The notes: generated by a model from the letters alone, not told the origin. Counted from the stretch's first letter, positions 41,821-64,000 are shown. The stretch is DNA of 64,000 nucleotides from Candidatus Binatia bacterium (GCA_963666515.2 OY762897.2:2144001-2208000); one strand, 5' to 3'. A program made the numbers and translations.

Positions 41821-42213
41821 CTATTGCGATTCAAACGGATAATGGCCTATGGACATGAGCCGCACGGCTGGCAGCTTCCTCAGTTGCCGGTTGAGCGGAT
41901 CGACTTCGATCCCCAGGGACTCCAGTGCCGTTACCCCGAGCAGCGGCTCGGTGTTCGCATCGCCGAAAAGGACCGTGCCCCCGACGACCTCTCCCATGAG
42001 CTCGATTCGCGCAACCGCGACGTCCATCGCAACTTCACTGCCGTTCGCCAGCAGGTATCTCCGCTGCCCTTCGGGCTCGATACCGATGGCTTCCAGGTGT
42101 TGCCTCGGGACGACGCTGTCGGTGGCGCCCGTGTCCACCACGAAGACCCCTTCCCAGGCCTTGTCCCGGTCGGCGGGGTTGCTGATGACTACTTTGGCGT
42201 TGACGACACCCAT
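41821..42213 (-). CDS. Clan AA (retropepsin-like) aspartic protease
   Basis: VVDTGA catalytic motif, LANG flap, PLLGVTALE. Confidence 0.85.
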   Translation of the reverse strand: MGVVNAKVVISNPADRDKAWEGVFVVDTGATDSVVPRQHLEAIGIEPEGQRRYLLANGSEVAMDVAVARIELMGEVVGGTVLFGDANTEPLLGVTALESLGIEVDPLNRQLRKLPAVRLMSIGHYPFESQ

Positions 42214-45567: not shown

Positions 45568-45574
45568 GCTGTCC

Positions 45575-47493: not shown

Positions 47494-48147
47494 TCAGCGT
47501 GCGAGTTCCCGGAGTTTCCGTCGAAAGTACTGGAAACTGGGCGATGCGTTGTTTTCCACATCCATCAGCGGAGCGATCCTCTCCGCCCATGCCGACTTTT
47601 CCGCCCCTACTGCCTGCCATCCGTTCGATTTCAGCGCACCTGAACCGCCTGCGAATATGGCGTCAGCCAGAACTTCCCACGTGCCGCAAATCGAGTCGCT
47701 AGCGTAGCGGTTGAGGATATCGACCTTGGCGTTGGGATAGGCCGACCTGATCGCCGGGAGGTCTCCGAGCAGCCACGCTTCACCTTCTTCGATGGCGATG
47801 CAGAATCGAGTGGTCGGTCCAGGATTGCAAGCATTCAGCACGGCAAAGAGTTCCTGCCGAAATGTTTTCTGACACCTGTCGTCCAGGTCGCAAACCAAGA
47901 CCACCGCTGCTGGATAGTCGGCCGGGTAACCGGCAAATGCCCTGCCGTAGCCCTTGAGCAAACGGGGGAGTTGGTCAAGTAAAAGGCGCTTGCTGGCGTC
48001 GGTAACCCTCTTGAGGTTCCTTGGAATACGTCCGATTCCCCGGTATTTGGTCACCTTGAACGTGTGCTCACACCCGATCATCTTCGGGATCAAGATGTCA
48101 AGTGCCCTCTTGCCGGACGCGTCTTCGACAAGTACCTCGAAGTGCAT
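47494..48147 (-). CDS. DUF4276-like TOPRIM-fold protein
   Basis: HFEVLVED.SG, VLVCDLD, IEEGEAWLLGD, N.SPSF. Confidence 0.7.
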   Translation of the reverse strand: MHFEVLVEDASGKRALDILIPKMIGCEHTFKVTKYRGIGRIPRNLKRVTDASKRLLLDQLPRLLKGYGRAFAGYPADYPAAVVLVCDLDDRCQKTFRQELFAVLNACNPGPTTRFCIAIEEGEAWLLGDLPAIRSAYPNAKVDILNRYASDSICGTWEVLADAIFAGGSGALKSNGWQAVGAEKSAWAERIAPLMDVENNASPSFQYFRRKLRELAR

Positions 48148-48151
48148 CCCA

Positions 48152-49423
48152 TCACCTGGCGTCGAAATAGTCGCTATACCAGAGGCCGCCCAACGGCAAT
48201 CCCTCCGCCACCATGTTCTCCACGATCGGATCGTCGCTCGCCCGCCGAACGGTTGAGAGGCCATCTGCTCCCTTCTCCAGTATCCAGACTTCGTTGGGCT
48301 CCAACGCATCCACCAGATAGGGTTGGTGCGTCGTCACGAAGACCTGTGAACCACCTTTGTGCGCACCGGCGTATTCACGAAATTCCTTGGCCAGTGTTTC
48401 CAGGAGCTTGTGATACAAGCCGTTTTCCGGCTCTTCGATACAGAGAAAGGGGGGCGGGGTGGGATCTTCAAGCAGCAACAGATAAGCGAACACCTTGAGC
48501 GTCCCGTCTGACATCTGCTGCGCGAAGAAGGGATCCTGAAAACCCTTGTCGTTGAACCTGAGCAATAGTCTGCCATCATTGGTTCTTTCCGTATCGATCT
48601 TGTCGATGCCCGGAATCTTGCCGGCAATGCTCTTCAGAATCTCCAAGAACCGTTGCGGATGTTCACGCTCCATAAATTGCACGACGTTACCAAGGTTGTC
48701 GCCGTGGATACTGAGATGCTTCTGAGGCCCGGCCAGCGGCAGACCGCGGGCCGCATCCGGCGTAAAGTAACTGAGATACCACCCCTCGATGAAACGGCGA
48801 AAAGCGGAGATTCGCGGGTGCTGTTTCAAGGCGCCTAGCGTGGCAATGCCGAGCCTACGACGATCCTCCAATTCGATGCGTTCAGCATCCTTGGATTCCT
48901 TCCCGGCTTTGACCAGTTCCAAAAACTCGAAAGCGTTGAAACCTTCTGTTGAATCGCCCTGAACAGCCAGATTTCCCTTCCACGCCACGCCACGCCCTTC
49001 GCTGAGAACAAGAAAAAGCGACGATGCAATATCTTCGCCCCGGTCTTCGCACATTTTCTCTTCTGACACATAAGGACGACCAGACTCGTCGACTTCGATA
49101 GCAACTTCATAGGTGATGGGAATAGAATTCTCATCTTCCCGATAGTACACCTCAAACTCCATAGGAGCCTCTTCCCCTTGCGTCCGCATTCTCTCGAAGC
49201 CGCCACGTCCCCGTGCGTCGCAAGCCTCTTCGACCCCGGATTTCAACGCATCGGCGAGAAACCCGAAGGCGTCGAACAGGGCGCTCTTGCCCACGCCGTT
49301 CTTGCCGATTACCGCCGTCATTGCTGTCACGGGTTGGACGTCCGGTCGGTCCCACAAACGGCCCAGCGTCACATCCTTGAGCACCTTGAAGTTTTTTACT
49401 CGAAAGCCTTCGATCCTGGCCAT
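48152..49423 (-). CDS. ABC/AAA_21 ATPase
   Basis: GKNGVGKS, SDGTL, IEEPENG, TTHQP. Confidence 0.85.
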   Translation of the reverse strand: MARIEGFRVKNFKVLKDVTLGRLWDRPDVQPVTAMTAVIGKNGVGKSALFDAFGFLADALKSGVEEACDARGRGGFERMRTQGEEAPMEFEVYYREDENSIPITYEVAIEVDESGRPYVSEEKMCEDRGEDIASSLFLVLSEGRGVAWKGNLAVQGDSTEGFNAFEFLELVKAGKESKDAERIELEDRRRLGIATLGALKQHPRISAFRRFIEGWYLSYFTPDAARGLPLAGPQKHLSIHGDNLGNVVQFMEREHPQRFLEILKSIAGKIPGIDKIDTERTNDGRLLLRFNDKGFQDPFFAQQMSDGTLKVFAYLLLLEDPTPPPFLCIEEPENGLYHKLLETLAKEFREYAGAHKGGSQVFVTTHQPYLVDALEPNEVWILEKGADGLSTVRRASDDPIVENMVAEGLPLGGLWYSDYFDAR

Positions 49424-49442
49424 TTTGCAGTACCTTATTGAA

Positions 49443-49841
49443 TTATTGGGTGGTAGAGGAGCGGGGCTTCAGCCTCCGTTCTCCGAATCTCCACCGGCCG
49501 TCCGCAAGCGACGCAATCGCGTCTATCTCCATCCAGCCGCCAATCAAGCCGTGGTGATGGCCTGCACCAACAAGCTGCTTTTGGCCAAGCCATCCGAACA
49601 CGAGACAGTGACCGGCATTTCGCAGGGTCCTTTTTAGCCAATCCTCCCGGACCAGCAAAGCCATGTGGCCATCCCCTTCAACGTAGCGCGCTACCGTCTC
49701 TCCACTCGGGATGCGCCACTCGCGAGTGCCCGGGACCCAGCGCAGCTTTCCCGACCTGAACAGAACCGGTGCCGGGGAAAAGGCCGTTACGCCTTCGTCG
49801 ATGGAGCAATCAAGGACATTGCCCTCCCAGTGGTAGTCTTC
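49443..49841 (-). pseudogene. Start-less C-terminal remnant of a large protein, resembles AVAST type 2 (Avs2) C-terminus
   Basis: Open frame of 132 codons directly after a TGA: EDYHWEGNVLDCSIDEG...LRW...ALLVREDWL...VFGWLGQKQ; family match recalled, not searched. Confidence 0.5.
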
Positions 49842-51088
49842 TCATCGTCAGCCTCGTCGCTGTTTTCGGTGAACGCGAGCGCCGTTTCCATCCACCCTTC
49901 GCTGAGGAGCCGGCCCAGCCCGCCCTGGGATGTTCTAAGCTCCTTGGCGTTGGGCAATTCGGCAACCGGGCGAATGATGGCGTCGTAGGAATCTTCAAGA
50001 CGGCACACGACCGACGTGTTCTCGAACGTGCTGTCGTTGGCGAAAGTCAGCATGTCCGGCGCATGGGTCGTGGTCACGACCTGGACGCTGCCTTTTGCTG
50101 TCTGTCTTTCGATCAGTTCAAGCAACAGCGCCAGCCGCGCGGGGTGAATGCCCGTGTCGATTTCCTCGAAAAAGTACAAACCATGAGGGTTGTCGCCCAG
50201 CAACGCAGCCAACACCGCTAGAAAACGCAGTGTGCCGCCCGAGGCGCTATATGCCGACACCCTTCTTTCCCCGGTCTCAAGAATGTGTAGATGGACTCGG
50301 TCACTTGGATCCGGGAGAAACTCAAGTTTCGCCACGTCCATCGGTGCGAGCTCCCGCAACCAATCGGCCAGAATCGTCCGTCGCGCCTCGTCTGTGCAGA
50401 TTTCCTTCAGAACCGTCGGCAGGTTCTGTCCAAAATCGCCCAATGTGTCCGCGTTCGGGAAGGAGGGTTCGCGCATGAGCTTGGGGGTCAACTCCAGAAA
50501 ACGCATGCCCTGGAAAACACGGAGCACCGGGACTTCGGATAGATCGAAGTATAGATCTGGCTGGTCCAGGAAAAATGCCTGATTCAGAACCGGTTGAGAC
50601 GCGCTCGCGGAATATCCTAGCGGACCGTTCTTCCCATCGAGCGACAATGAGTGGTCAGTTGCTGTCGTCGCCTTGTAGACCCTTCCAGACTCGGTCTCCA
50701 GCTCCTCGCTCACCACGACAAACCTGTCAGGGCCATGAGGCTTGAATCCCACGGTGATCGCGTAAGATGTCCTTTTGCCCGCCAACTCCATCTTGACCTC
50801 GATGGAAAACTCGGATGGCTTCAAGTAGAAGGATGACGGAGAGAAACGAGCGATCTCGTTTGGAGCGCCGCGAATCGGTTCCCATTCCGGTTGGCCCCCG
50901 ACCCCGTGTTTCCCAGCGATGATTTCCTCCAGTGTGTAGCCCCGGCCAATACCGTGAAGGAAGCGGAAGGCGTCGCGGACATTGCTCTTGCCGCTTGCGT
51001 TCGCGCCCACGATCGTCGTGAACGGTCCTACCCGCAACGTCTCATCCGCGAAATTCTTGAAGTTCACGAGGCGGATCGAGGTAATCAT
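49787..51088 (-). CDS. ABC/AAA_21 ATPase lacking a downstream partner
   Basis: NFKNF, GANASGKS, SGGTL, FEEIDTG, TTHAP; GGAGG RBS before ATG 51088. Confidence 0.85.
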   Translation of the reverse strand: MITSIRLVNFKNFADETLRVGPFTTIVGANASGKSNVRDAFRFLHGIGRGYTLEEIIAGKHGVGGQPEWEPIRGAPNEIARFSPSSFYLKPSEFSIEVKMELAGKRTSYAITVGFKPHGPDRFVVVSEELETESGRVYKATTATDHSLSLDGKNGPLGYSASASQPVLNQAFFLDQPDLYFDLSEVPVLRVFQGMRFLELTPKLMREPSFPNADTLGDFGQNLPTVLKEICTDEARRTILADWLRELAPMDVAKLEFLPDPSDRVHLHILETGERRVSAYSASGGTLRFLAVLAALLGDNPHGLYFFEEIDTGIHPARLALLLELIERQTAKGSVQVVTTTHAPDMLTFANDSTFENTSVVCRLEDSYDAIIRPVAELPNAKELRTSQGGLGRLLSEGWMETALAFTENSDEADDEKTTTGRAMSLIAPSTKA

Positions 51089-51131
51089 CGGCTTTCCTCC
51101 GATTGACGGTTCATGTCCCAAGGGAACCGGA

Positions 51132-54100
51132 TCAAAGGTGCATCTGCCGCGGCTCCTGGACGCCGTCGCGCCCGGCCACATGGTTGCTCACGGCTTCGAG
51201 AATCGCCCGCTCGTCCGATCCGGCATCGGCCAATTCGATCAGCGTCTGGAGGATCTGGTTGAACAAGGGGTTGCGCTGGAGGCCGCGGGTGTCGAGGTAG
51301 TCGTCTACCTTGACCTGATCCCCAGCTCGCCACAGGTGCATGAGCTTGTGCACCTGGTCGATCAAGGGTGCCGGCCGCCCACCCGGAGCTTCGAAACCGA
51401 GGTTGCGGCCACTGCGACGATGCCAGGGTTTGAGCTTTACTTTGGCCCCGGTGCCCGGCTCTCCAACGTCCTCCGACGGGTCCTCCTCATCGTCCGGGTC
51501 GCCGGTCTTCTCTGATTTGGTCAAGAGATCATACTGCCGGACCAGATCCGAATCGGACAGATTGCATGACAGCGCATAGAGAATACATCCGCCAATGGCC
51601 GCTTCCGTCGTACCGAAGTCGTGGCGATGGAGCAGGTAGTATGTGGTGACGTCGTCCAGTCCCGTGGCCGCCTCTTGCCCGTTGGACGACGTGGGAGCGC
51701 TTTCCTGGAACAACACGCGGCCTACTACGAAGTCCACAACCATGCGGCGGACCTCGGTCAAAAACTCCGAGACCGTCATCTGCCGGTCTCGGTCATTCGC
51801 CTTCTTGACGGCCGGATGCTTGCTGAAAGCCTCGAGCGCCGGCCCCGTAGCCGCCCATACGAAATCCGGCCCGCGGATGCCGGCATCCCAGAAGTCACGA
51901 AGTTGCCGGGTGATGTTCTCACGCATCTCGCCGAGGACTACGTTGTCCCAGCCGACACGGGAGGCTGAACGCCTCTTGCAGACTAGCCAAACGGAAGATG
52001 AGAGGGCAGCGGAGGCCATCGCGCGAGTCCTGGTCCCCATCTCCGTCTGGATGGGCCAAGAGCCATCAACTACGAGTCCGGCCCTGATCAGGGCGGCGGC
52101 GAGTGTCTCCCATGCATCCGGCTGCTTGTTGGCGAATACGACTACTAGACGGCCGTCTGGCCGGAGCGCCGCAGCCAGGGAGCGAAACACACGGGCCATG
52201 CCATCTTCGTAGTTTTGCTTCGACCGTTCCTTGTCGCCCCCGAATCGGCTCGCGTCGTCTATGAGTTCACCGTCCTTCTCTTCATGATCCCATTTAGGGC
52301 CGAGCTTGTCCGAGAAAAGCCCATCGACCTCCGACGACAAGCCCGTTACAGATCGCCTCAACCACACGTAGAAGAAATCCATCAGGTCCGAATACGGAAT
52401 TGCATCGTAGTATGGAGGATCGGTGACAATGGCGTCATACTCTCCGGATGCTGCAACCGCGCTGGCGCCCAAGACACTGTTCCCTTCCGCCGATTGAGCC
52501 GCCACCAGTGTGTGGGCAACACAGCGCGAGACCCAATCGAGTGCACCGAGATAGTTGCCGGACGAATCCGACAGCGGATTGACCTCGGTGTAGTCCCACA
52601 CGATGGGGAGTGCGAAGCGCGCAAAGGTATGTCCGAGTTTTTCCCCGCTGTTGTGCCACGAGCAAACTGCGCTGGAGTAGTCGGCCAGCCGGTCGTTGAC
52701 GAGCGCAAGTTGCGCGATCATGGCTTCGCGCCAGCTTTCCGGCCAACCGTCGAGTTCTTGCATAAGGTTCCGAAGGACGAGAGCAAACCGTCCAAGGGTC
52801 AGTAGCTGCCGGTTGGTGAATAGCTTCCGCCAAGTGTCGAGACCGTATAGCGGAACGCGGAACCCAAGAGCCTCCTTGCTCGGCAAGGACTCCTCCGGTA
52901 GCCCGAAAGGAATATCAGCGTAGAGGATCTGGAGTTGTTCATCGGTTACCTCAGCCACAGCACGCTCATGATCCGTAGGCAAGCGGTACTCCTTGCCCTT
53001 CTGGCCATCGACAACCACCGCGGTCATCACCGCACCCAGCCTGCCCGCCCGGCCCTCAAAACGGATGTCCTCCATCGTCATGATCGTGCCGCAGCATGGG
53101 CAGGTGGCTCCGGTGCGCGACATGGTGCCCGCCCCGACACGCCTGTCGTGCTCCCGTCGCTGAGCCGCGTTGCCGCCGTTTTGCGGGACTCCGTTCTGAA
53201 CTCCAAACACGGCCCCAGTGCCGTCGGAGTTCCGATCCATCGTCAGCAGGACGCGCTTTCGTTCCTTCTTGCATAACCAGCGCGTCTTGAGCAGCGGGAG
53301 CGTGGCCCGGCACTGCTTGCAGGTCACGGTACGCGCCCAGAGAAAGGCGACCGTAGGTTTGGCAATCCAGCGCGGGTTTCGCGGGTCCTTGAGGCAGGCG
53401 GCGTCGAATTCCGCGTTGAGCGGGTCGAGTAACGGCAGGCCCCTCTCGTCAACCTCCAGAAGTCGCATGGGGCGCGGTTCAAACTCCAGGCCCGGCGCCG
53501 GCGGCTCGAACTCGGCATAGGTCGGGTAGTACGCCGCCAGTTCCCTGCGCGCCCTTGCCAGCACCCACCGCCCCCAGGCGCGCACCTGCCAGGCCAAGTC
53601 CGCTTCCACCGTCGGATCGTCATGCGCCAATGCATCAAGTTGCATTTCACCGCCGTCGCCGTGGCCGAGGCGTTCCAGGTGAGTCCGCAGGCTCGCGCCC
53701 TTGAACCCCTTGGCCTTGAGGAACGCCTCCATGAACTCCCAGTCTTCCCGGGCAAATTCAGGCAAAGGCCGCGTCTGGCCGGCGAGCTTCTGGGGATATT
53801 CAAGCGTGCACTTGAGGATGAACCAAGCCACCGGGTTGATGTCCATGGCAGTGACTTCACAGCCCAACCGCATGGCTTCGAGGGGAATAGCGCCGCCTCC
53901 GGCAAACGGGTCCAGCACCTTGGGCGCCCGGCCGCCGTACGCATTGCGTATCTCGTCCCTGAACCACGCGAGACCCGGCTGGTTCTCGCGGCCCCAGTGA
54001 AGAATGCCGCCGACGGTCTCCTCTTTCACCGTCTCGACCGTGCGGCCGTTCAAGCGCTTGCGCTCGATCTTCTCCGTGACTCGGCCCGCCATGCGCTCCA

Positions 54101-54329
54101 GGATCGCTCGGCGCTTGTCGGGATCACCGGGATCCGGCAGCAGCGTTGCGATCAACGCCGCCCGCGCCGCCGCCAACGGCCTCCGCGCCGGCCAGATATG
54201 CAGCGTGGAGATGTGCCCGTGCCGCACGTTCTTCTCGTGCACGGAGTCGAGAGACACCTGCTTGAGCGGAAAGGCCGCTTCGATGAGGCGACGGTCGCTC
54301 AAGGCGCCGTCAATGTTCGGCACCGACAT
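51132..54329 (-). CDS. DUF1156 adenine-specific DNA methyltransferase with Zn-finger
   Basis: LH.WPARRPL, motif I DPFAGGG.IPLEA, CxxC pairs, motif IV DPPY. Confidence 0.9.
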   Translation of the reverse strand: MSVPNIDGALSDRRLIEAAFPLKQVSLDSVHEKNVRHGHISTLHIWPARRPLAAARAALIATLLPDPGDPDKRRAILERMAGRVTEKIERKRLNGRTVETVKEETVGGILHWGRENQPGLAWFRDEIRNAYGGRAPKVLDPFAGGGAIPLEAMRLGCEVTAMDINPVAWFILKCTLEYPQKLAGQTRPLPEFAREDWEFMEAFLKAKGFKGASLRTHLERLGHGDGGEMQLDALAHDDPTVEADLAWQVRAWGRWVLARARRELAAYYPTYAEFEPPAPGLEFEPRPMRLLEVDERGLPLLDPLNAEFDAACLKDPRNPRWIAKPTVAFLWARTVTCKQCRATLPLLKTRWLCKKERKRVLLTMDRNSDGTGAVFGVQNGVPQNGGNAAQRREHDRRVGAGTMSRTGATCPCCGTIMTMEDIRFEGRAGRLGAVMTAVVVDGQKGKEYRLPTDHERAVAEVTDEQLQILYADIPFGLPEESLPSKEALGFRVPLYGLDTWRKLFTNRQLLTLGRFALVLRNLMQELDGWPESWREAMIAQLALVNDRLADYSSAVCSWHNSGEKLGHTFARFALPIVWDYTEVNPLSDSSGNYLGALDWVSRCVAHTLVAAQSAEGNSVLGASAVAASGEYDAIVTDPPYYDAIPYSDLMDFFYVWLRRSVTGLSSEVDGLFSDKLGPKWDHEEKDGELIDDASRFGGDKERSKQNYEDGMARVFRSLAAALRPDGRLVVVFANKQPDAWETLAAALIRAGLVVDGSWPIQTEMGTRTRAMASAALSSSVWLVCKRRSASRVGWDNVVLGEMRENITRQLRDFWDAGIRGPDFVWAATGPALEAFSKHPAVKKANDRDRQMTVSEFLTEVRRMVVDFVVGRVLFQESAPTSSNGQEAATGLDDVTTYYLLHRHDFGTTEAAIGGCILYALSCNLSDSDLVRQYDLLTKSEKTGDPDDEEDPSEDVGEPGTGAKVKLKPWHRRSGRNLGFEAPGGRPAPLIDQVHKLMHLWRAGDQVKVDDYLDTRGLQRNPLFNQILQTLIELADAGSDERAILEAVSNHVAGRDGVQEPRQMHL

Positions 54330-54720
54330 GTATGCGCTCCTCAGCCCAGCGAATGACAGACTTGGCAATTTCCAGTGCTTCCTGGTGCTGCTTCTCTGTG
54401 ACGGGAGGTTCGGCGCCGGGGTAGCGAGTAGCGACGGCGAAGTGAGTGAGGCGCTCCGCCTGCCACACTGCTTCGGATATCTCCTCACCCCCTTCTTCAA
54501 GAATCGTCAGCATAACGCCCAAATCATGAATGTAAGGAAACTCGACGTTACGCCGGATCAGCACCGCCTTGATGGCCTTCTCCGCGGCCTGTTGTGCCTG
54601 GGAACACAGATCCTCGATATGGATTTCGGGTCCGCGCAAGCCTGCCAGGGCAAGGCTGCTCTGAGCCCGACTCAGCCACTCTCGCGGATCATCCGGCGGA
54701 AACCGGTCAGGCGGACTCAT
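54310..54720 (-). CDS. HEPN domain protein (MNT-HEPN pair)
   Basis: AQQAAEKAIKA, HDL, RYP. Confidence 0.85.
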   Translation of the reverse strand: MSPPDRFPPDDPREWLSRAQSSLALAGLRGPEIHIEDLCSQAQQAAEKAIKAVLIRRNVEFPYIHDLGVMLTILEEGGEEISEAVWQAERLTHFAVATRYPGAEPPVTEKQHQEALEIAKSVIRWAEERIHVGAEH

Positions 54721-55159
54721 AAACGACCTTGCCCTCCTGCAACGCCGGCTTGATGACCAAGGCATGGCTGTCCTTGTAGCGCTCGACGTCCGCCGGCGAG
54801 ACCACAATCGCATCCACGGCGGTCCGCACGCCACGCAAGCCTTCGTAGATTCGCGCGCTGAGTTCGCGGTCGCCTCCTTCCTTGATGATGAGAAGATCGA
54901 CGTCGCTTTGTCCGGTCATGATACCGCGGGCCGCGGACCCGAAGAGTATGATCTTCTCCGGCTGGGCAACCTTCACGACGCGTCGGATAACTTCGTCGAG
55001 AGCCGCTGGGTCCAGTGCCGCTGAACTCAATGCTGCGGCCCTCGAAACCTCTTCCGCGCGGCGACGCGCCGTTCGAGCCGCCCTGTGCATGGCTGCCTCT
55101 GCGCCGATCAAGTCGGAGCTACGAGGCCTTTCCGTCGGCTTCCGATTCCCTGCGCTCAT
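54707..55159 (-). CDS. Minimal nucleotidyltransferase (MNT) with N-terminal extension
   Basis: ILFGS.ARG....SDVDLL. Confidence 0.85.
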   Translation of the reverse strand: MSAGNRKPTERPRSSDLIGAEAAMHRAARTARRRAEEVSRAAALSSAALDPAALDEVIRRVVKVAQPEKIILFGSAARGIMTGQSDVDLLIIKEGGDRELSARIYEGLRGVRTAVDAIVVSPADVERYKDSHALVIKPALQEGKVVYESA

Positions 55160-55188: not shown

Positions 55189-56610
55189 TTACATGAAGAA
55201 CCGGAATTGATAGGGGGTTTTCCCCAAGCTCGGCATACGCTTCACTACACGGGAGAGCACCTTGGCATAGGCCATGGTTACAGGTAGCGGGTCGTATAGC
55301 GCATCATTGTTCCAGTTCATCTTCGACAGCCCAAGCACTGCCCGTACCGTGTCATCCCACGGCCCGTGACCTGCATGGCGAACCAGCCGCACAGGCCTGG
55401 GAGTGCTCCGAGCCCCCTGAAAGTAGGAACCTGATGTGATGCCCGTCACATTACCGTGTGTCCACAGCAACGCGTCTCGTGGTCCAAGCCTGACCACGGT
55501 ACCACGCGGAACCGGGTATGCGGCGCCGCGGCCCTTCTTTTCACCTTGATGACCGGGATCAATGCGGACGCCACGCCAACCAACATCCTCAACCACCTGA
55601 ACGAGATCGACTTCTTCACACAAGTGCAACGCCTCCATACAACCCTCGACTTCGTCCCGTTTGAACTCAGTGGTCTTATGTACCATCACACGCCGGGGCG
55701 GCTGTCCTGCATGACGACGGCGGTAAAGGTCCAGGGAACGCGTCATGACGCGGAACATTTCGGTCCGGGAAAGGAACGGATTGTCTCGCTGGACGTTGAC
55801 CTCATGAGCGTCATAGGCAATGAACTCCAAGCCGGAGCCTTCTTCGTCGAACACCTGACTGCAACACGTCACAAATCGAGGTCGATCGGCCTGAACGGGA
55901 CGGATCGCGTATGAGATGCCTATGTAGGCGGTTCCGGGATCAGCTTCAGCCAACTTCCATGGAACGCCGCCAGCCTTGGCATAAAGCGCAAGACCGACAC
56001 GCCACATCACACTGGCTCGGCAGGGATAAGCAAGTGCCTTGTCCTCTCGGACCAATTGAACAGGGATACGACGTGTGGCGGTGACGGCTTTTAGATGGTC
56101 GTGCAGGTCGAAGTCTCCCTCAACTCCACCGGCGAAGCCGGGTTCCCAGCGTTTGGGAAGGTAGATGAACAAGACGTCGAAATCATTCCGGCGAGATCCA
56201 AGGCTGTGAATCGCCCTCGTCAACGCCTCCGCGAGTACCGTGTAGGGCCTGGGTGAACTACGGAAATCGGACTCGACCCGGGAATCGAGTTCCACGAGGC
56301 AGCCGCTGTCTGCCGGGCCGATGTGCAGCCCAAAGACTCTATGGAATCCTGGCCATTCTGGCAGATAATCAACTCGCTCCTTTGGTTTATACGTCGTTTT
56401 CAGCTTCTTCATGAATCCGTAAAGACGTTCGCTCTCACCGGCTGGTGCCAGCGTGGCCACCCTTATTGGGTCAGGGACGCAACCCGCTGAGTGAGGACCG
56501 AACTTCAACAGCCCGTAGAGCGGATGAGGCGTTCGATCCGAACTACGGTCGGGATGAAAGCTCAACTGAGGCTCAGACAACCACATGTGGGGGCTGATCT
56601 CGAAACTCAC
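55189..56610 (-). CDS. Short prokaryotic Argonaute (MID-PIWI, non-catalytic)
   Basis: 473 aa; EP.L.F, HPL.GL..FGP, HDHLK, YAKAGGVPW, YIGISY, VHKT, RGT, LSKMNWN, LPVT. Confidence 0.9.
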   Translation of the reverse strand: MSFEISPHMWLSEPQLSFHPDRSSDRTPHPLYGLLKFGPHSAGCVPDPIRVATLAPAGESERLYGFMKKLKTTYKPKERVDYLPEWPGFHRVFGLHIGPADSGCLVELDSRVESDFRSSPRPYTVLAEALTRAIHSLGSRRNDFDVLFIYLPKRWEPGFAGGVEGDFDLHDHLKAVTATRRIPVQLVREDKALAYPCRASVMWRVGLALYAKAGGVPWKLAEADPGTAYIGISYAIRPVQADRPRFVTCCSQVFDEEGSGLEFIAYDAHEVNVQRDNPFLSRTEMFRVMTRSLDLYRRRHAGQPPRRVMVHKTTEFKRDEVEGCMEALHLCEEVDLVQVVEDVGWRGVRIDPGHQGEKKGRGAAYPVPRGTVVRLGPRDALLWTHGNVTGITSGSYFQGARSTPRPVRLVRHAGHGPWDDTVRAVLGLSKMNWNNDALYDPLPVTMAYAKVLSRVVKRMPSLGKTPYQFRFFM

Positions 56611-58349
56611 GACATCGTCCTCCGCGAAAAGGCAGTGGTACGCGAAAGCTCAAATATGGCATCGATCCCACCTTCGACATCCAACGCACGCATCTCCGTC
56701 CCGTTCCGTCCCAAGTATCCCGCCCAAAAATCAATGAGCCCGTTCAGCATTCGATTGTAGCGCTTGACAGTCCGCTCACGAGCGAAATCTGCCGCCGCGG
56801 CCTTGTTCTCGTAATTCACTCCCTCGAACACGGTCGCTGGCTCGATCAATAGCCAGAGCTTGTCATCGGCCCAACCTAGACGAATGGCGATGCCTTCGCT
56901 CCACAGCAGATCCCGATCACCATTGACCGTGCCGTTCAATCTTCCCACCAAATTCTCCAAGGGTTTCCAGACGACATCGCTCGGATTGGCCGGCGACAGT
57001 AGGTCCGTACCCCTGCGATGTCGCCGTATAAGGTCACACTCCCGCGCTAGCGCCACCGTCAAGGCTTCGCGTAAGAAACCGCGTTCGTTGGAATCGTATC
57101 TTTGTTTCCTGACGTCCAACGTGTGGATATCGAATTCGCTAATGTCCTTACCTTCAAATGCAGCCCGCACGTCGGCATCAGCACCAAAGGCCAAAACCCC
57201 GACTCCGGAGCGAACAGCGAGCACATTGACCCCAGCTTCCTGAACTGCTTGGCGTACCTCCGAAGTTCCACCTATTTCACAAACCACCCTCCTGCATGTG
57301 TTCGGCACTTTGACCAGAGGTAAGGCGTTGAGTCGTACGACCGGCCAACCGCGACGCCGGACTTGTGGAAGCGGTGCAGGACTCCAATGTCTGCGCTCCG
57401 TGGCGAAGTCATCAAGCACTTTGGTATCGATGCTCTCAAAAAGGCGCATCAAATCTCGCAAAGTCTCGTCGAAGTTCTCGATAACGACCAACGCCGTCTC
57501 AACCCCCGCTTCCTTCCCTCGATCCAAGAGTCTTTGAACACGTGTCAAGGGGGGTTGCTCACCACGGTGTAACCAAAAAAATCCGGAGGGAAACGCCCTT
57601 TGACACGTGATCGCCTCCTCCAAAGTGTCCATGATCGAGTCGTCACGCCCGCTGTATCCCGCAACCACAAGTCCAAATCGCTGGCATTGGGCGATCATTG
57701 CTTGTCTCAGGCGTTGATCTTGATGTCTTAATTCGTCGTCCGTGTTCTTCAATCGGCGGGATCGGAAATCGCCATGTAGCTTTACCTCGAGTGGCCAGCG
57801 CTCGTCGGCTATCGCTTGTTCGGCCAAATCCGGGGCGTCGAGAGCCGCTGTGGTTAACGCACCTGTGGTGTCATATATCTTTGCACAGGCGTCGGCTACC
57901 AGTGCATCGAAGTTTGTAGTCCAGACGATGCGCATCAGTTCGGCGTACATCAACGTAGCGAGCGCCATGTGACCATAAGACGGTTTCGCTCCCGCCAATT
58001 TCGCACGCAAAAACGCTTGGCGGTCCTTTTCGGCAGGATACGCAGCTTCGAATAGCTGAGCGTACTCGTCCGGAGCACCCGGCTTAGGGGATTGCTCCAT
58101 GGAATCGATGTGGCCCTGGAGCTGATCACGCACCATGGGCTGGGAAAGATCTGCTACGGTTTGATACGAGCCCCGACGTTGACTGACGAAAAGCGTCTGT
58201 TTGAACTCCCATATCATGTCCATGGCAGTAGGAACACCGGCCGCAGCAGAACTCCCAGCGCCAAGGAACCACATCAGACTTCGCGCCCGCATGGAGAAAC
58301 GACGCGCGAAGTCATCCAGTGTGATTCTTGGAGTATCTGATTCCTGCAA
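56607..58349 (-). CDS. SIR2-APAZ NADase partner of short Argonaute (SPARSA)
   Basis: FLGAGSS, WTTNFD, KLHGDF, VAGYSGRD, RLNALP; TTG start after AGGAGGAGG; GTGA overlap with ago. Confidence 0.9.
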   Translation of the reverse strand: MQESDTPRITLDDFARRFSMRARSLMWFLGAGSSAAAGVPTAMDMIWEFKQTLFVSQRRGSYQTVADLSQPMVRDQLQGHIDSMEQSPKPGAPDEYAQLFEAAYPAEKDRQAFLRAKLAGAKPSYGHMALATLMYAELMRIVWTTNFDALVADACAKIYDTTGALTTAALDAPDLAEQAIADERWPLEVKLHGDFRSRRLKNTDDELRHQDQRLRQAMIAQCQRFGLVVAGYSGRDDSIMDTLEEAITCQRAFPSGFFWLHRGEQPPLTRVQRLLDRGKEAGVETALVVIENFDETLRDLMRLFESIDTKVLDDFATERRHWSPAPLPQVRRRGWPVVRLNALPLVKVPNTCRRVVCEIGGTSEVRQAVQEAGVNVLAVRSGVGVLAFGADADVRAAFEGKDISEFDIHTLDVRKQRYDSNERGFLREALTVALARECDLIRRHRRGTDLLSPANPSDVVWKPLENLVGRLNGTVNGDRDLLWSEGIAIRLGWADDKLWLLIEPATVFEGVNYENKAAAADFARERTVKRYNRMLNGLIDFWAGYLGRNGTEMRALDVEGGIDAIFELSRTTAFSRRTMS

Positions 58350-58393: not shown

Positions 58394-58987
58394 TCAGTCT
58401 GGCAATCCACGGAAGGCATTACGAAGATCCGCTATGAAACGCTGAAAGGACCTGTCCACACTTGCCACGCGGTCGATTTCCATATGCCGGACAATCTCAT
58501 CCGCGTATTCGATACCCCCGAGCCTCGGTACCGTTTCGGTAGCTCTAATGGCCTCGATCAGTCGTTCCTTGTAGCGGCTTCGGGCGCACTTCTGGTCGGG
58601 TGCATCGCAGCCCTTTCCGAACACAGCCTTGAACGCTGCCCCATCCAACAGCAACCAGCGCTCTATGTGGGGATCAGGTATGGCGAGGATAAGCGTGGGT
58701 TTGTCTCGACTCCTTTTGGCTTGGCTCCTTACTTCCTGCGCTCGTCGGTTCAAGCCCCTGCAGTTGGCGTCGGTGGCTACAACGAGCAGATCAGGCCACG
58801 GACTACCTTGGCGCTCGAGATCACTTATGTAGTCCTTGAGCTTTCCGACAACTTTGCCGTAGCCGCCTACGGCGTTGCGCCAATTGAGCCGTATGGAGAC
58901 ACCGTATTCCGCGGCGATCCTCTCCACGAGTGTCCCGATCACCTGCCGATGCGCGTAGTCCTCAACGAACAGCGCAATCTCACGCAT
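58394..58987 (-). CDS. DUF4276/RloB-like TOPRIM-fold partner protein
   Basis: LFVED, VVATDAN, PHIERWLL.D; 8-nt overlap with the ATPase. Confidence 0.7.
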   Translation of the reverse strand: MREIALFVEDYAHRQVIGTLVERIAAEYGVSIRLNWRNAVGGYGKVVGKLKDYISDLERQGSPWPDLLVVATDANCRGLNRRAQEVRSQAKRSRDKPTLILAIPDPHIERWLLLDGAAFKAVFGKGCDAPDQKCARSRYKERLIEAIRATETVPRLGGIEYADEIVRHMEIDRVASVDRSFQRFIADLRNAFRGLPD

Positions 58988-60290
58988 CGAAATCTCCTCT
59001 CAGAATGCGTTCAGACACGGCTGGTGCGTCCTGCTGGTCCGATAGTGCCTCATCGATCCCAATCCGTCGTCCCAATGGCCCCCAAACAGAAAACGAGTCG
59101 ATCCGAGTCCTTCGGTCGATCCGATTCATCACGAACAGGGAGCTGTCCTCCAACATATCAGGCAGGATGGGCGAGTGCGTCGTGACAACGTACTGGGTCG
59201 TCTTCAGGACCTCCTGAGTCTTGAGAAGCTCAGCGATGAGCTGGATTCGACGAGGGTGAACGCCGTTTTCTGGTTCTTCGAAACCCACAAGCGCAGGGGC
59301 CTCGTCAACACCGGTCAACGCTAGAAGCCCGAGCATCCGCAGTGTCCCTTCCGAGAGTACGCGAGCGGGGAACGCAACACCGCCTTCCCGGAGGCGAAGC
59401 TCCACCTCACCGAGATCGCTAACCTCCACTTCGATGCCGTCGATGTTCGGCATCAACAGATTGAGCGCCTTCTCAATGCCTTTGAACTGTCTCTCATCCG
59501 TGGCCTTCATGGTGTTGAGGAACGCTGCGAGCTCTTCTCCCATCAAGCCGATATGGCGGACTTCCTTTACCGGATTGGCGGCACGCATGCGTTCGCGCGG
59601 CTCGAAGTAGAAAAACAACCAACTCTCCAACTCGCGCCGTGCAGCCACCAAATGGGGATAGTGTGGCGGATAATGCGGCATGGAGAGGATGCTATGATCC
59701 AGATAACGGTCGAAATAGGTGGGGTGCGCTTGCCCTTCGTGGCGGAGGTGTATTCTTCCGCCTTGTCTTTCGAGAAAAGGCTTGCGCTTGCCCGTGGGCT
59801 CTCCCTTGCTGTTGAGCGCAGCCAGATACTCGTCGGCAACACGCAACACGCCCGACCTGGGCAGCATTTCCACCTCAATGCGGTACCGCAAGTCGCGTTC
59901 ACGAACGCGCGCTGGCACCTTGCTCTGCTTCTGGGAGACTCCGGCATCGTTTGGTCGACGCATTTCTCGGATCTGGCGATCGACGAACTTTACCACGCTG
60001 TCCGACAAGCTCAGATCGGCTTCGATTGAAAACGACAACCGCTCTTGCTCCAGCAAACCCTTGATCCCTGTTTGCCCTATCGTAAAGGACTCCAGCGGCT
60101 TTCCACGATAAGGAGGCTCAAAGGCTTCTTTGAGCGTCCGGCTCGTCACTAGCTTTGACAACAATTGCAAAGCGTCAAGTAGATTGCTCTTGCCGGCGGC
60201 ATTCGGCCCAAACAGGACGACAAGCTGAGACAGACTCACTTCAACGTCTTCAAGGGACTTGTACCCTCGTATTTGTACGCGCTTCAGCAT
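58980..60290 (-). CDS. ABC/AAA_21 ATPase
   Basis: GYKSL, GPNAAGKS, SEGTL, FEEPENG, TTHSP. Confidence 0.85.
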   Translation of the reverse strand: MLKRVQIRGYKSLEDVEVSLSQLVVLFGPNAAGKSNLLDALQLLSKLVTSRTLKEAFEPPYRGKPLESFTIGQTGIKGLLEQERLSFSIEADLSLSDSVVKFVDRQIREMRRPNDAGVSQKQSKVPARVRERDLRYRIEVEMLPRSGVLRVADEYLAALNSKGEPTGKRKPFLERQGGRIHLRHEGQAHPTYFDRYLDHSILSMPHYPPHYPHLVAARRELESWLFFYFEPRERMRAANPVKEVRHIGLMGEELAAFLNTMKATDERQFKGIEKALNLLMPNIDGIEVEVSDLGEVELRLREGGVAFPARVLSEGTLRMLGLLALTGVDEAPALVGFEEPENGVHPRRIQLIAELLKTQEVLKTTQYVVTTHSPILPDMLEDSSLFVMNRIDRRTRIDSFSVWGPLGRRIGIDEALSDQQDAPAVSERILRGDFDA

Positions 60291-60320
60291 GTTTCCCCCT
60301 CCAGGACTCCAATCAAGCAA

Positions 60321-60381
60321 TCCTCAGCTTGGCGAAGGATCGCCTTGGCGATTTCCAGTGCCTCCTGGTGCTGCTTTTCTG
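60321..60381 (-). pseudogene. 3' remnant of a HEPN gene; imperfect direct repeat of 54338-54398
   Basis: 51/61 nt identical by manual alignment; encodes EKQHQEALEIAKAILRQAE vs EKQHQEALEIAKSVIRWAE. Confidence 0.75.
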
Positions 60382-60420: not shown

Positions 60421-60783
60421 CTACCCAGCCAGCGGAACAATCCTTGAACCGCGGATGACCCGATCCCGCGTCAGTAACGGCACGTCATGCACGATGCTGG
60501 TGGCGGCGATGATCTCGTCCGCGGGATCGCCCTTGAAGTCCAGTCGGGTCGAGGCTCGCGCAACGGCGAAATCGATCGGCCACACGTGCACGCGGTTCAA
60601 TACACGGACCACTTCACGGTCGTCGAGGTCCACATCCAACCGACCCAGTTGGACGAGCTTGGCCAATTCCCACAAGACTATGGCCGAAATGGACCACGGA
60701 CTCCCCGTCAATAGACTCTGCTCGGAACGTTGGAGGTTGCCGTCCATCGCGAAGACGAGAATATGCGTGTCAAGATTGAGCAT
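60421..60783 (-). CDS. vapC: VapC/PIN toxin
   Basis: LDTH, S.IVLWE, DPAD.II.AT, LLTRD. Confidence 0.9.
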   Translation of the reverse strand: MLNLDTHILVFAMDGNLQRSEQSLLTGSPWSISAIVLWELAKLVQLGRLDVDLDDREVVRVLNRVHVWPIDFAVARASTRLDFKGDPADEIIAATSIVHDVPLLTRDRVIRGSRIVPLAG

Positions 60784-60994
60784 TTGCGTCCCAGGAAACG
60801 CCGGTCGTCAGGATATCTCCCCGAATCTTGATCTTGTGTCGCAGGCTACCGATCAGATCAGCGCATTGCCGGTCGTAGGGGACCACCCGGGCGACAGGCT
60901 TGCCACGCTTCGTAACGATCAACCCTTCCGTGTCAAGGCTGTCCAGCAATGCCAGGCACTGCTCTTTGAACTTGGCGGCTCCAATCGTCTTCAT
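60770..60994 (-). CDS. Phd/YefM family antitoxin
   Basis: AAKFK..CL.LLD, IVTKRGKPVARVVP. Confidence 0.9.
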   Translation of the reverse strand: MKTIGAAKFKEQCLALLDSLDTEGLIVTKRGKPVARVVPYDRQCADLIGSLRHKIKIRGDILTTGVSWDANAQS

Positions 60995-61010: not shown

Positions 61011-61048
61011 ACTGGACACATTATATGACCAGTCACTCAATTTGTCTA
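61011..61048 (-). promoter_or_regulatory. Sigma70 promoter with overlapping inverted-repeat operator for phd-vapC
   Basis: TAGACA-N17-TATAAT on the minus strand; ACTGG(T/A)CA inverted repeat flanks the -10 box. Confidence 0.7.
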
Positions 61049-61088: not shown

Positions 61089-64000
61089 TCAGTTGATTCC
61101 CGCCTGTTCCGCTGCCTCCATGACCGCACCCGCCGTGATGGTAAACGCGAGCGACTCCCGTCCCTTGACCAGCAGCTTCGCGAACGGATCGCGTACCCTT
61201 ACCAGCCGAGGGTTGGGCGTGGCGCAGTCGAAGACCACGTAGAGCCAGTACCGACCCCGAAGGTTGCAGGCCCTGGACCACTCGTTTTCCTGCATCTCCA
61301 CGCTGCCGGTGCGCGCGCGGCCTTTGACTTCGATGGCTCGTTCTTCCCCGAGACGGCGGGATCTGAGATCGAAGCCCGGCCAATCGGTCAGGCCGGCGCG
61401 GCGTGCGAGTTCGGGGCGCGATACGTCGGCGACCTCGGCGCCGAAGCGCTCCTCGTAGGCAGTGGCCACCTGCATTGCGACGGCTTCCACGTCGGAGTCG
61501 TATCGCTCGGTCTCGCCGGTGTCCTGTACGGGCACCACGAGAGCGTGGGCGAGCAACTCGACCTCTCCGGCCTGGATGAGGTCCGGCTCGGCTTCCAACG
61601 CGGCCAACGCGCGGTTGCGGTGGCTTGTCAGGCTCCGCTGCCGTTCCTTGACTCTCGAAAGCTCGGCGTTGGCACGGGGGTCACCCGCGCGCGCCTTCTC
61701 CCCGAGACGCGCGCGGGCCGCGGTCAGCTCCGCGGCACGAAAGTCGAACCCGCGCTTGACGAAGTCGACGCGGGCGGGGAGGTCTTCCGTGCGACGCTGC
61801 CGGTGCGACTGGACAAGCCGGTCCAGCACGAACTCCCGTGCGTAAGTCACGGCATCCTGGACCATGCCGCGCGCCAGGGTCGCGAGGGGAACTCGGCTCG
61901 GCGCGAAGCCATGTGCGCCTCTGAGCAACAGCAGGTGCTCGACCGGACACTCCTCCACGGCGCCGTCGTTGGACTGGCGCAGCCCGGTAAGCCTCGACTC
62001 CAGAGTCTTCGAGGCTGACTGTTCGCGCTGTTCCACCGTCACCCGTGCGACGTGGAACAGGTACGGCTCGGTTGCATAAGGGTCGGTGAACACGGCGCCC
62101 CGAAGACCGTCCCGGCCGAAACGGTCCAGGACGGTAACCGACAGAGCGTCGAACAGCGGCTCGCCGGGGTGCAGCCAGACAGCGTCTTCACGGGTCGCCG
62201 GCTTGTAGACCGTAAGACGTTGCCGCGCAGGCTCGGCGTACCGTTCGAGGGCGGGCAGCAGCGGGTCGCCGGCGCCGGGACGGTCGGAAACGAATGCGAA
62301 GGTCGTTTCCGGATCGCCTTCGATACGGAGGTTCAGCAACGGCGCCACCTTTTCCACGAAACGGCGGACGTAGCCGGGCAGAAGCCGCCGGTAGTTCTCC
62401 TGCTCCGCCTCATCCTTGAGGTCGTCGAGTCTTCCGCGCACGTCCCCGCCCTGCCCGTAGAGCACACGCTCCCTTTCCTCCAGAGCCCGGACCTGCTCCT
62501 CGGTCAGGTGTCCCTCCAACTGCTGGACAACGGCTTCCGCATCGTCCGTGACAGCCTGCTCAAGGTAGTCCTTCATGGAGACGCCCTCGAACAGGCGGCC
62601 CACCACGTCGAACACCTTGTCGGACTGAAGCCTGCGGCGCATGGCCTCCAGCTTGTCGAGCAGCGTCTTGAGCACCCTGCCCTCGCGCGTGCCGCCGGCC
62701 ACCAGATTGACGATGACCACCGGATCGTGACGCTGGCCGTAGCGATGGATGCGGCCCATCCGCTGCTCCAGCCGCGCCGGGTTCCAGGGGATGTCGTAGT
62801 TGACCATGAGCCAGCAGAACTGCAGGTTGATCCCCTCACCCGCGGCATCCGTGGCCACCAGGTAGCTGGCTCCGCCTTCGGCCGCTGGCCGCCGGAAGAA
62901 CTCGACTTGCCGTTCCCGTTCCTGGTACGGCAGGCCGCCGTGGATCAGCGCGACGCGGCCGGTGAAGCCCAGACCTTCGAGGCGGCGCACTAGGAATTCC
63001 GCGGTGTCGCGGTGCTCGGTGAAGACGATGAACTTCTCGTCGGCGTAGCGAGGATCGCGGAGCACTTCGCGCAACTTCTCGAACTTGGACTCCTCGCCGG
63101 CATCGAAAAGCCGTCGCGCCTTGTCGAGCAACTCCTCGACCTTCAGACGCTCGGTCTCCAACTCCCCGAGAGTCACCGCGACCGTAGCGCCGAGCGCCTG
63201 GCTTTCGAACTCCTCGTGCTGCTCGCCCCGGTCCTCGATCGACGCATCCTCGTCCGCGGTGCGACTCTCGAAGACGTCCTCAATATCGTCCAGGTTCCGC
63301 TGAAGGCGGGCGAGCGCTTCCTCGGTGAGCCCCCCGTCCCGAATGTCTTCGATCAGCCCCTCGATCTTGTCCAACCGGCGCTCGAAAGACCGCATCAGGG
63401 CATACGTGGAGCTGGCCAAGCGCCGCTGGAAGACGCTCATGGCCAAGCGGGCCGCGGACCGGTTCAGCACCCGAGCCCGGTTGTAGTAGAAGCGGAGGTA
63501 CTCGGTCGCGTCGTCGTAGAGTTCCTGTTCACCTTCCCGCCCCTGAGACAGGTCGTAACTCAGCGTGTCGCAGTTGCGCTGCGGATACAGCGGAGCACCA
63601 TCAAGATGAACCAGCTCCTCCTTGGTCCGGCGGATGAAGTGCCTCGGCCGCGAATCGCGGGCAAACGCATCGAACGCGTCGCCGGTCGAGAGCGTGTCGG
63701 GAAGCAGCAGCCGCCACAGGAAGTAGTAGGGGTGGTCCTTGCCCATGTGCGGCGTTGCGGTCAGCAGCAACAGATGCTGAGCAGACCACGGTAGTCTCCA
63801 CCGGTCACCGTCCACCTCGGCGCCCGCCAATGCCTCCGCCAGCCGGTAACGGTCGGTCTTCCGCACCCGGAAGTCGGGCTGGCGATCCGCGGAGAGCTTG
63901 TGCGCTTCGTCGAAGACCACAAGGTCGTAAGGCTGCGTCGCCGCATCCTTGAGGCAACCGAACAGCCTTTCTCCGGCCAGGGTGTCGACGCTGACGATGA
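61089..64000 (-). CDS. SNF2-family helicase with C-terminal DUF3883 PD-(D/E)xK nuclease (5' end outside window)
   Basis: DEAH, LTATPH.G, ATDAAGEGINLQ, PWNP.RLEQR.GRIHR; GFD...IEVKG; frame open to the window edge. Confidence 0.9.
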   Translation of the reverse strand, partial: IVSVDTLAGERLFGCLKDAATQPYDLVVFDEAHKLSADRQPDFRVRKTDRYRLAEALAGAEVDGDRWRLPWSAQHLLLLTATPHMGKDHPYYFLWRLLLPDTLSTGDAFDAFARDSRPRHFIRRTKEELVHLDGAPLYPQRNCDTLSYDLSQGREGEQELYDDATEYLRFYYNRARVLNRSAARLAMSVFQRRLASSTYALMRSFERRLDKIEGLIEDIRDGGLTEEALARLQRNLDDIEDVFESRTADEDASIEDRGEQHEEFESQALGATVAVTLGELETERLKVEELLDKARRLFDAGEESKFEKLREVLRDPRYADEKFIVFTEHRDTAEFLVRRLEGLGFTGRVALIHGGLPYQERERQVEFFRRPAAEGGASYLVATDAAGEGINLQFCWLMVNYDIPWNPARLEQRMGRIHRYGQRHDPVVIVNLVAGGTREGRVLKTLLDKLEAMRRRLQSDKVFDVVGRLFEGVSMKDYLEQAVTDDAEAVVQQLEGHLTEEQVRALEERERVLYGQGGDVRGRLDDLKDEAEQENYRRLLPGYVRRFVEKVAPLLNLRIEGDPETTFAFVSDRPGAGDPLLPALERYAEPARQRLTVYKPATREDAVWLHPGEPLFDALSVTVLDRFGRDGLRGAVFTDPYATEPYLFHVARVTVEQREQSASKTLESRLTGLRQSNDGAVEECPVEHLLLLRGAHGFAPSRVPLATLARGMVQDAVTYAREFVLDRLVQSHRQRRTEDLPARVDFVKRGFDFRAAELTAARARLGEKARAGDPRANAELSRVKERQRSLTSHRNRALAALEAEPDLIQAGEVELLAHALVVPVQDTGETERYDSDVEAVAMQVATAYEERFGAEVADVSRPELARRAGLTDWPGFDLRSRRLGEERAIEVKGRARTGSVEMQENEWSRACNLRGRYWLYVVFDCATPNPRLVRVRDPFAKLLVKGRESLAFTITAGAVMEAAEQAGIN

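Follow-up and report, generated by a model that had tools for sequence, protein, structure and literature searches.

A SPARSA pair nested in an Hma operon of a Candidatus Binatia bacterium: gene integrity, genomic context and probable autonomy

Does an Argonaute-based immune pair that lies inside the operon of another defence system work as a component of that system, or does it only share its location? The question is raised by a 64,000-nucleotide stretch of the genome of a Candidatus Binatia bacterium (GCA_963666515.2, OY762897.2:2144001-2208000; hereafter the window, with coordinates counted from its first letter), in which a SPARSA pair, composed of a SIR2-APAZ protein and a short prokaryotic Argonaute (pAgo, or Ago), is found between the genes of an Hma operon. 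A preliminary description of this DNA had recognised the pair and had proposed that its neighbours could supply it with guides or targets. The reading favoured here, to which a probability of about 0.85 is assigned, is that the pair is a complete and probably functional SPARSA, one of at least seven cassettes nested in the Hma operon, which acts autonomously as a separate layer of immunity and is not a part of Hma.

The SIR2-APAZ/Argonaute pair and its recurrence

The region from 55189 to 58349 consists of exactly two open reading frames (ORFs) on the minus strand, encoding the SIR2-APAZ protein and the Ago (Table 1). The SIR2-APAZ gene starts with a TTG at 58349, ahead of which lies a AGGAGGAGGG ribosome-binding site, and its TGA stop overlaps the GTG start of the Ago gene by 4 nt (GTGA), the junction reading ...ATGTCGTGAGTTTC... 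This coupling had been noted in the preliminary description, as had the SIR2 motifs GAGxS, TTNFD and KLHG and the HxxxK and Q motifs of the MID domain; all of them are found in the translations, as GAGSS, TTNFD and KLHG in SIR2-APAZ and as HDHLK and the Q within PVQLV in the Ago. The Ago translation also carries GISY and VHKT, which align with GLSY and IHKT of the Geobacter sulfurreducens Ago (GsAgo) and which presumably stand at the Asp positions of the PIWI catalytic DEDX tetrad, a tetrad that would thus be lost.

Family and structure matches point the same way. PADLOC assigns the first protein to Aga_SIR2-PNTD1-PNTD2 (1e-184) and the second to pAgo_I (8e-194, with model positions 3-457 of 457 covered). 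Pfam detects SIR2_2 in the former (8.2e-13), while the Piwi family stays under its cut-off in the latter (19.3 versus 28.9 bits). Over their whole length, the two proteins align with GsSir2 and GsAgo, SIR2-APAZ with PDB 8in8_B/8jl0_A (9.8e-71, residues 10-575) and the Ago with 8in8_C (1.7e-109, residues 4-473). By its length of 473 amino acids (aa) and by the alignment of its residues 4-473 on GsAgo 7-473, the Ago is made up of MID and PIWI domains alone. The SPARSA identity claimed earlier is thus borne out by full-length likeness to the G. sulfurreducens system of known structure and by the conservation of catalytic residues (see the last section), and since the ligand residues are conserved as well, the pair looks intact and is predicted to be active.

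The mechanism can be inferred from the homologous G. sulfurreducens system: the two proteins would form a heterodimer, and its MID domain would take up small RNA guides with a 5'-phosphate. Base pairing of such a guide with complementary single-stranded DNA (ssDNA) of a plasmid or phage would lead to tetramerisation, which would align the SIR2 catalytic His and Asn and bring about hydrolysis of NAD+, whereupon the infected cell would die or stall.

To place the pair among its relatives, one genome per species was searched for relatives of the Ago, and 545 stretches that encode them were confirmed. The 80 best-matching stretches (66-90% identical) were analysed with 10-kb flanks, at least 3 kb being present on both sides in 55 of the 80 loci. 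SIR2-APAZ lies directly upstream of the Ago in 79 loci, the exception being a 2.6-kb contig (L072), and no other flanking gene family occurs in more than seven of the 80; the conserved unit is therefore the SIR2-APAZ/Ago pair itself. The Hma context recurs in other genomes, as five of these 80 closest loci possess it: SPARSA occupies the slot between hmaA and hmaB in three loci from Binatia (L001, L002, L031) and one from Pseudomonadales (L077), and lies just after hmaC on a cut contig from Verrucomicrobiota (L007).

Ten further loci lie in or beside type I restriction-modification (RM) genes, with SPARSA between hsdS and hsdR (L003, L014, L026), directly after hsdR (L041, L057, L058, L080), after hsdS (L013, L065) or divergent to the RM operon (L038). 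SPARSA follows drmD-drmMI of a DISARM system in L006, druE of Druantia in L008 and L019, and a type III methylase in L032, and in some other loci its neighbours are genes of DRT, retron, Hachiman or Zac. Of the 80 loci, 64 (42 of the 61 clusters) showed no operon of the Hma, type I RM or DISARM type in which SPARSA lies or which it abuts; genes of Druantia, type III or other type I systems adjoin the pair in four of these 64 loci. Dereplication at 95% gave these 61 Ago clusters, the window included, distributed as Hma 6, type I 9, DISARM 1, Druantia 2, type III 1 and other 42.

Two groups of near-identical Agos (at least 95% within the group) were observed, one comprising L042, L046, L048 and L050-L053 and the other L067-L073, L075 and L079. 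They cross genera and in one case phylum (a Fimbriimonadaceae metagenome-assembled genome, MAG). TrbI conjugation genes adjoin L042, L048, L050 and L051 of the first group, and chromate/efflux (metal) resistance genes adjoin most loci of the second. Such near-identity across genera is a sign either of recent transfer on conjugative elements or of mix-ups in MAG binning.

The host operon and its embedded genes

The pair had been described as embedded between a helicase-nuclease and a DNA methylase. These flanks are real and correspond to HmaA and HmaB, but they are not the immediate neighbours, as four genes (vapB, vapC, an AAA_21 ATPase and DUF4276) intervene between HmaA and SIR2-APAZ and two (MNT and HEPN) between the Ago and HmaB. 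Every gene from 42268 to the end of the window is on the minus strand. Eight genes are embedded between hmaA and hmaB and five between hmaB and hmaC, 13 in total, and these can be read as at least seven nested cassettes: VapBC; the AAA_21 ATPase with DUF4276; SPARSA; MNT-HEPN; the PDC-M07A-like ATPase; HEC-01; and the third ATPase with its partner.

Table 1. Features of the Hma operon in the window, in minus-strand order (values after family names are those of the matches)
Feature	Coordinates	Strand	Length	Remarks
hmaA, SNF2 helicase with C-terminal NOV_C/PD-(D/E)XK nuclease	61089..64000	-		5' end beyond the window; Pfam Helicase_C 3.3e-23, NOV_C 5.2e-14; PADLOC HmaA 1.4e-123, model positions 220-1160 of 1176 (N-terminal ~220 positions outside the window)
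sigma-70-like promoter match, TAGACA-17-TATAAT, 11/12	61020..61048	-		consensus match only
vapB-like antitoxin (Phd/YefM)	60770..60994	-	74 aa	Pfam PhdYeFM_antitox 4.1e-07
vapC-like PIN-domain toxin	60421..60783	-	120 aa	Pfam PIN 3.2e-12
HEPN 3'-end remnant	60321..60381	-	61 nt	direct repeat of 54338-54398, 84% identical
AAA_21 (ABC/OLD-type) ATPase, HEC-01A-like	58980..60320	-	446 aa	Pfam AAA_21 4.6e-28; PADLOC HEC-01A 6e-56
DUF4276 partner of the ATPase	58394..58987	-	197 aa	Pfam DUF4276 6e-09; weak PADLOC HEC-01B 1e-06
SIR2-APAZ, predicted SPARSA NADase effector	56607..58349	-	580 aa	from the ORF list
short pAgo (MID+PIWI)	55189..56610	-	473 aa	from the ORF list
MNT-type nucleotidyltransferase (antitoxin of MNT-HEPN)	54707..55159	-	150 aa	Pfam Polbeta 1.2e-09, NTP_transf_2 3.4e-08
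HEPN protein	54310..54720	-		Pfam HEPN 2.1e-25
hmaB, DUF1156 N6-adenine methyltransferase	51132..54329	-		Pfam DUF1156 1.9e-18; PADLOC HmaB 9.5e-122
AAA_21 ATPase, PDC-M07A-like	49787..51181	-	464 aa	Pfam AAA_21 5.4e-27; PADLOC PDC-M07A 1.1e-57
HEC-01A ATPase	48152..49423	-	423 aa	PADLOC HEC-01A 4.6e-184; Pfam AAA_21 1.6e-40
HEC-01B (DUF4276/TOPRIM-like partner)	47494..48309	-		PADLOC HEC-01B 1.6e-93
third AAA_21 ATPase	46204..47457	-	417 aa	Pfam AAA_21 1.7e-28
partner ORF of the third ATPase	45575..46327	-		no Pfam family
hmaC, DUF499 AAA+ ATPase	42268..45591	-	1107 aa	Pfam DUF499 4.1e-17; PADLOC HmaC 1.1e-68

The VapBC and MNT-HEPN genes form unremarkable type II toxin-antitoxin pairs, as judged by their Pfam families and by the overlap of 14 nt between the two genes of each. 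The MNT gene starts with an ATG preceded by a GGAG site, 29 nt past the Ago stop; the likely start of the HEPN gene is the ATG at 54720 (its longest ORF extends to 54834), and that of hmaB is the ATG at 54329 (longest ORF to 54500), which has GGAG upstream and gives an overlap of 20 nt with the HEPN stop. The DUF4276 gene and the adjoining ATPase gene overlap by 8 nt and form a weaker relative of HEC-01 (58394-60320; 6e-56 and 1e-06), and the HEC-01 architecture itself, an AAA_21 ATPase followed by a TOPRIM-like protein, is found at 47494-49423. The PDC-M07A-like ATPase has no clear partner gene in the window, all ORFs in 49424-49786 being of 73 aa or less; its relative in L077 does have a partner gene after it.

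The junctions from hmaA to hmaB, with the refined starts, measure 94, -14, 100, -8, 44, -4, 29, -14 and -20 nt, those from vapB to hmaB spanning -20 to +100 nt. This spacing fits co-transcription, in agreement with the earlier proposal on this point, and the SPARSA pair is probably co-transcribed with its host operon. The promoter match listed in Table 1 sits right after the hmaA stop, upstream of vapB, and is the only strong promoter-like site; it may drive the embedded genes from within the operon, although such matches number two in the 19-kb region against 4.4 expected from shuffles. A terminator scan gave 17 matches against 15.8 expected from shuffles and is thus uninformative.

The G+C content of the island is about 56-62%, compared with about 66% in the housekeeping and metabolic genes that fill the 42 kb on its left, and its right border lies beyond the window. 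A tRNA and an integrase were considered as marks of the island borders and rejected, as the window has no tRNA and none of its scanned ORFs encodes an integrase. The 61-nt HEPN remnant, which is positioned between vapC and the first AAA_21 ATPase, was likewise considered as a mark of cassette insertion. The likeness of the two copies is confined to a core of about 60 nt at the HEPN 3' end, and a 42-aa ORF at 60284-60412 matches HEPN residues 147-166 (15 of 20 identical, E=5e-09), so that the repeat is best described as a gene remnant, from which no mechanism of insertion emerges. The block ATPase-DUF4276-SPARSA-MNT-HEPN is enclosed by the two 61-nt copies, an arrangement suggestive of earlier recombination between HEPN genes.

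Outside the operon, hmaC is followed directly by an ORF of 130 aa for a retropepsin-like aspartyl protease (41821-42213, minus strand; Pfam gag-asp_proteas 2.9e-09). The left part of the window includes a fusion of a class I Glu/Gln-tRNA synthetase with a C-terminal GatB/YqeY domain (9222-11648, plus strand, 808 aa) and two hydantoinase/oxoprolinase A/B gene pairs (19145-23120 and 33352-37358).

Mobility, probable autonomy and alternative explanations

The relationships among the Agos were examined with a quick IQ-TREE tree of 81 sequences. The window Ago pairs with that of L001 (support 100). One clade of 15 rows (SH-like approximate likelihood ratio test 97) contains five of the six Agos linked to Hma, along with two rows embedded in type I loci and eight further rows. 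Monophyly of the six is rejected by the approximately unbiased (AU) test (log-likelihood difference 100.2, p=0.0017), and with it a single origin of Hma-linked SPARSA; the association with Hma was thus gained or lost repeatedly, though in a clustered manner, gains and losses being inseparable by this test. Relatives of the pair sit in Hma, type I RM and DISARM contexts, which together with the AU result argues for the mobility of SPARSA.

Comparison with the nearest loci indicates which parts of the operon are stable. L001 and L002, both from Binatia and with Agos 90% and 80% identical to that of the window, keep HmaA, the ATPase, DUF4276, SPARSA, HmaB and HmaC, the ATPase being represented at the same position by orthologues 91% and 86% identical to the product of 58980..60320. 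Both are without VapBC and without MNT-HEPN, and PDC-S32 takes the place of the latter; this candidate defence gene is located between the Ago gene and hmaB (L001:11914-12984; L002:11296-11826), and the L002 copy matches the C-terminal part of the model only. The slot between hmaB and hmaC has no inserts in L001 and HEC-01 only in L002. The third ATPase of the window is 70% identical to an ATPase upstream of SPARSA in L003 (L003:5835-7091), and its partner ORF is 60.6% identical over 218 aa to the gene after that orthologue (L003:7040-7756). The same cassettes seem to circulate among different host operons. In L003, a gammaproteobacterial type I RM locus, this ATPase with its family-less partner (window 45575-47457; L003:5796-7756) stands beside SPARSA and DarTG. 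The SIR2-APAZ gene of L001, a Binatia MAG and the closest relative, is split into the overlapping ORFs 8263-9123 and 9000-10004 by either a frameshift or an assembly error; this split and the HEPN remnant of the window indicate turnover at these loci.

The autonomy of the pair is argued from the characterised members of the family, as the Gs, Cc and Pg Sir2/Ago systems protect Escherichia coli without other genes (Zaremba preprint). SPARSA would accordingly be a cassette that entered the Hma hotspot by cassette exchange and that, most likely transcribed with its neighbours, would act in the Binatia organism as an additional layer of immunity, independent of them.

Several points weigh against this interpretation. 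The expression and the activity of the window pair are predictions from its sequence. One promoter-like site is found near the cassettes, upstream of vapB, so that the expression of SPARSA may depend on its neighbours. The Hma label clusters on the tree above shuffles (values as low were obtained in 9 of 500), and this, with five of the six Hma-linked Agos in one clade, means that the association is not random and that SPARSA may still be linked to Hma-type hosts by selection or by function. At the level of residues, the tetramer-interface positions Y168 and Q297 of the G. sulfurreducens system are replaced by D174 and L303, and R190 of GsAgo, which reads U2 of the guide, is replaced by Y195. 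The details of activation and the 5' guide preference may therefore differ, and the 5'-AU preference may not carry over to the window pair. Y195 is invariant in a 12-sequence family alignment, from which it appears that this clade may prefer another 5' dinucleotide.

The most serious alternative is functional coupling, in which the helicase-nickase of Hma or the neighbouring RNases make ssDNA targets or RNA guides for SPARSA, the whole operating as a two-stage machine. The shared strand and the near-zero gene spacing are in its favour, and so are the recurrence of SPARSA in the hmaA-hmaB slot of four relatives, spread over Binatia and Pseudomonadales, and the report of HmaA as a nickase in the text of Liu 2024 (PMC11232893). 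In addition, 19 of the 61 clusters, the window included, lie in or against an operon with a large superfamily 2 helicase/translocase and/or a DNA methylase, a raw count of about a third of the dereplicated lineages, uncorrected for the rate at which other defence systems sit beside such operons. The host systems concerned use different mechanisms, however, and in most loci (the 64 of 80 counted above) none of the Hma, type I RM and DISARM operons was detected next to SPARSA. The RNase neighbours are not conserved alongside SPARSA either, as MNT and HEPN have no tblastn match in any of the 80 loci and VapBC likewise has none in the related loci. These varied contexts, the lack of conservation of the RNase neighbours and the autonomy of the characterised Sir2/Ago systems make coupling improbable, and no evidence was obtained for the supply of guides or targets by neighbouring RNases or by the backbone that the preliminary description had suggested.

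An equally doubtful proposal is that the SPARSA of this clade is preferentially recruited to helicase/methylase operons, where it would read invader ssDNA laid bare as these systems unwind, nick or degrade DNA, or boosted transcripts from the invader, restriction being followed by suicide. If true, it would amount to a mechanistic hand-over, with restriction as the first stage and Argonaute-triggered suicide as the second. The related loci offer a natural series in which to ask whether abortive-infection modules embedded in this way only share the regulation of the host restriction system or are mechanistically fed by it, as the hmaA-hmaB slot is filled differently in the Binatia relatives and the same cassette occurs in type I RM.

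The weakest explanation, that the cassette is in frame yet non-functional or unexpressed, a decaying passenger of a fast-turnover hotspot, draws on the frameshift-like split in L001, the HEPN remnant and the partnerless PDC-M07A-like ATPase, but is very improbable, as the split may be a MAG assembly error and both window ORFs are of full length relative to the Gs proteins, with conserved catalytic and ligand residues and a strong ribosome-binding site ahead of SIR2-APAZ.

Comparison with known systems

The coupling of the pair to a SNF2-nuclease/methylase backbone and nearby RNases had been put forward as one not known to be described. This backbone is already in the literature as the Hma system, which Payne et al. 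2021 (PMC8565338) defined and which the text of Nucleic Acids Research (NAR) 2026 (PMC12839542) renames "Type-1 BR", a BREX-related system, and the embedding of defence genes in it has been described already. According to the text of Payne 2024 (bioRxiv 10.1101/2024.01.29.577857), where the approach is termed "guilt by embedding", embedded genes are present in 931 Hma systems out of 1,485; of these genes, 22.8% belong to known defence systems and 96.7% share the orientation of the host. The text of Liu 2024 (PMC11232893) reports that HmaA defends against T4 and that the hma region is an insertion hotspot for defence genes, with insertions in 66.5% of hma systems. The window resembles these systems in having HmaA, HmaB and HmaC in that order on one strand, with inserts in both intergenic slots, all in host orientation, among them the HEC-01 pair known from the literature and further pairs with an AAA_21 ATPase, the family most often embedded.

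It differs in its load of eight and five genes, much heavier than that of the surveyed set, as the survey of Payne 2024 set an upper limit of three embedded genes for each slot (as its text states). The window locus exceeds this limit, which is a search setting and not a biological criterion, and a locus of its kind would be left out of the survey; the 13 embedded genes thus imply that loaded hotspots and their cargo may be under-counted. SPARSA in Hma is an instance of a known pattern and not a new kind of system, since SPARSA and the Hma hotspot are both published, so that the finding adds an instance and not a category.

The presence of a short-pAgo system inside Hma in several lineages was not found named in the texts searched: no insert is called pAgo, Argonaute or SPARSA in the texts of Payne 2024, NAR 2026 and Liu 2024 and in one supplement of the last, a scope that leaves the figures and the bioRxiv supplements outside, and no such report was among the matches listed in a literature search for Hma with pAgo. 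In that one Liu 2024 supplement, Piwi, PF02171 and Argonaute have no matches, while SIR2_2 has 38, two examples being a STALD-SIR2_2 protein and a SIR2_2 gene that has a DUF87 (HerA-like) gene as its neighbour. The absence of Piwi there is a weak indication, as this Ago family scores below the Pfam Piwi cut-off. The STALD-SIR2_2 protein is presumably Thoeris-like.

Among short pAgo systems, SPARTA (with a TIR-APAZ protein) and SPARDA (with a nuclease-APAZ protein) resemble the window pair in combining a short pAgo, presumably catalytically inactive in the window, with an APAZ-effector protein. SPARTA-type chains in the PDB match the PIWI half of the window Ago at about 1e-22 to 1e-24, with matches that reach residues ~166-472 only, and the effector of the window is SIR2, as opposed to TIR or a nuclease.

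The closest known system is the SPARSA of G. sulfurreducens, with which the pair was compared through PDB entries 8in8, 8jkz, 8jl0, 8k87, 8k88, 8y7z, 8y80 and 8y82. Of these, 8Y7Z, 8Y80 and 8Y82 are described as G. sulfurreducens SPARSA in the text of PMC11452484 and belong to the same PDB sequence groups as the matched chains. Residue equivalences were mapped by hand from the printed alignments. Apart from the substitutions weighed above, the window pair differs at the MID-pocket position I182 of GsAgo (L186 in the window) and at Gs Y274 (F279); its genes overlap by 4 nt as against the 11 nt reported for Gs, and it is nested in an Hma operon, whereas no conserved operon surrounds GsAgo, a catalytically inactive protein (Zaremba preprint).

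The likeness extends over the whole system. Two overlapping genes, SIR2-APAZ followed by the short pAgo, are present in both, and their products measure 580 and 473 aa in the window and 586 and 473 aa in the solved Gs chains. In the Ago, the 5'-phosphate ligand H166 of Gs corresponds to H170, the cation ligands N434 and C-terminal M473 to N434 and M473, and the residues F158 and D164, which read A1, to F159 and D168; the sensor-loop N272 of Gs is kept as well. In SIR2-APAZ, the catalytic N142 and H186 of Gs correspond to N146 and H192, and the NAD-binding A26, A37, S227, R229 and D230 to A31, A42, S233, R235 and D236. Mutation of these seven Gs residues abolished or strongly reduced activity, according to sources that include the text of PMC11452484 and the Zaremba preprint, and all seven have their identical counterparts in the Binatia protein.

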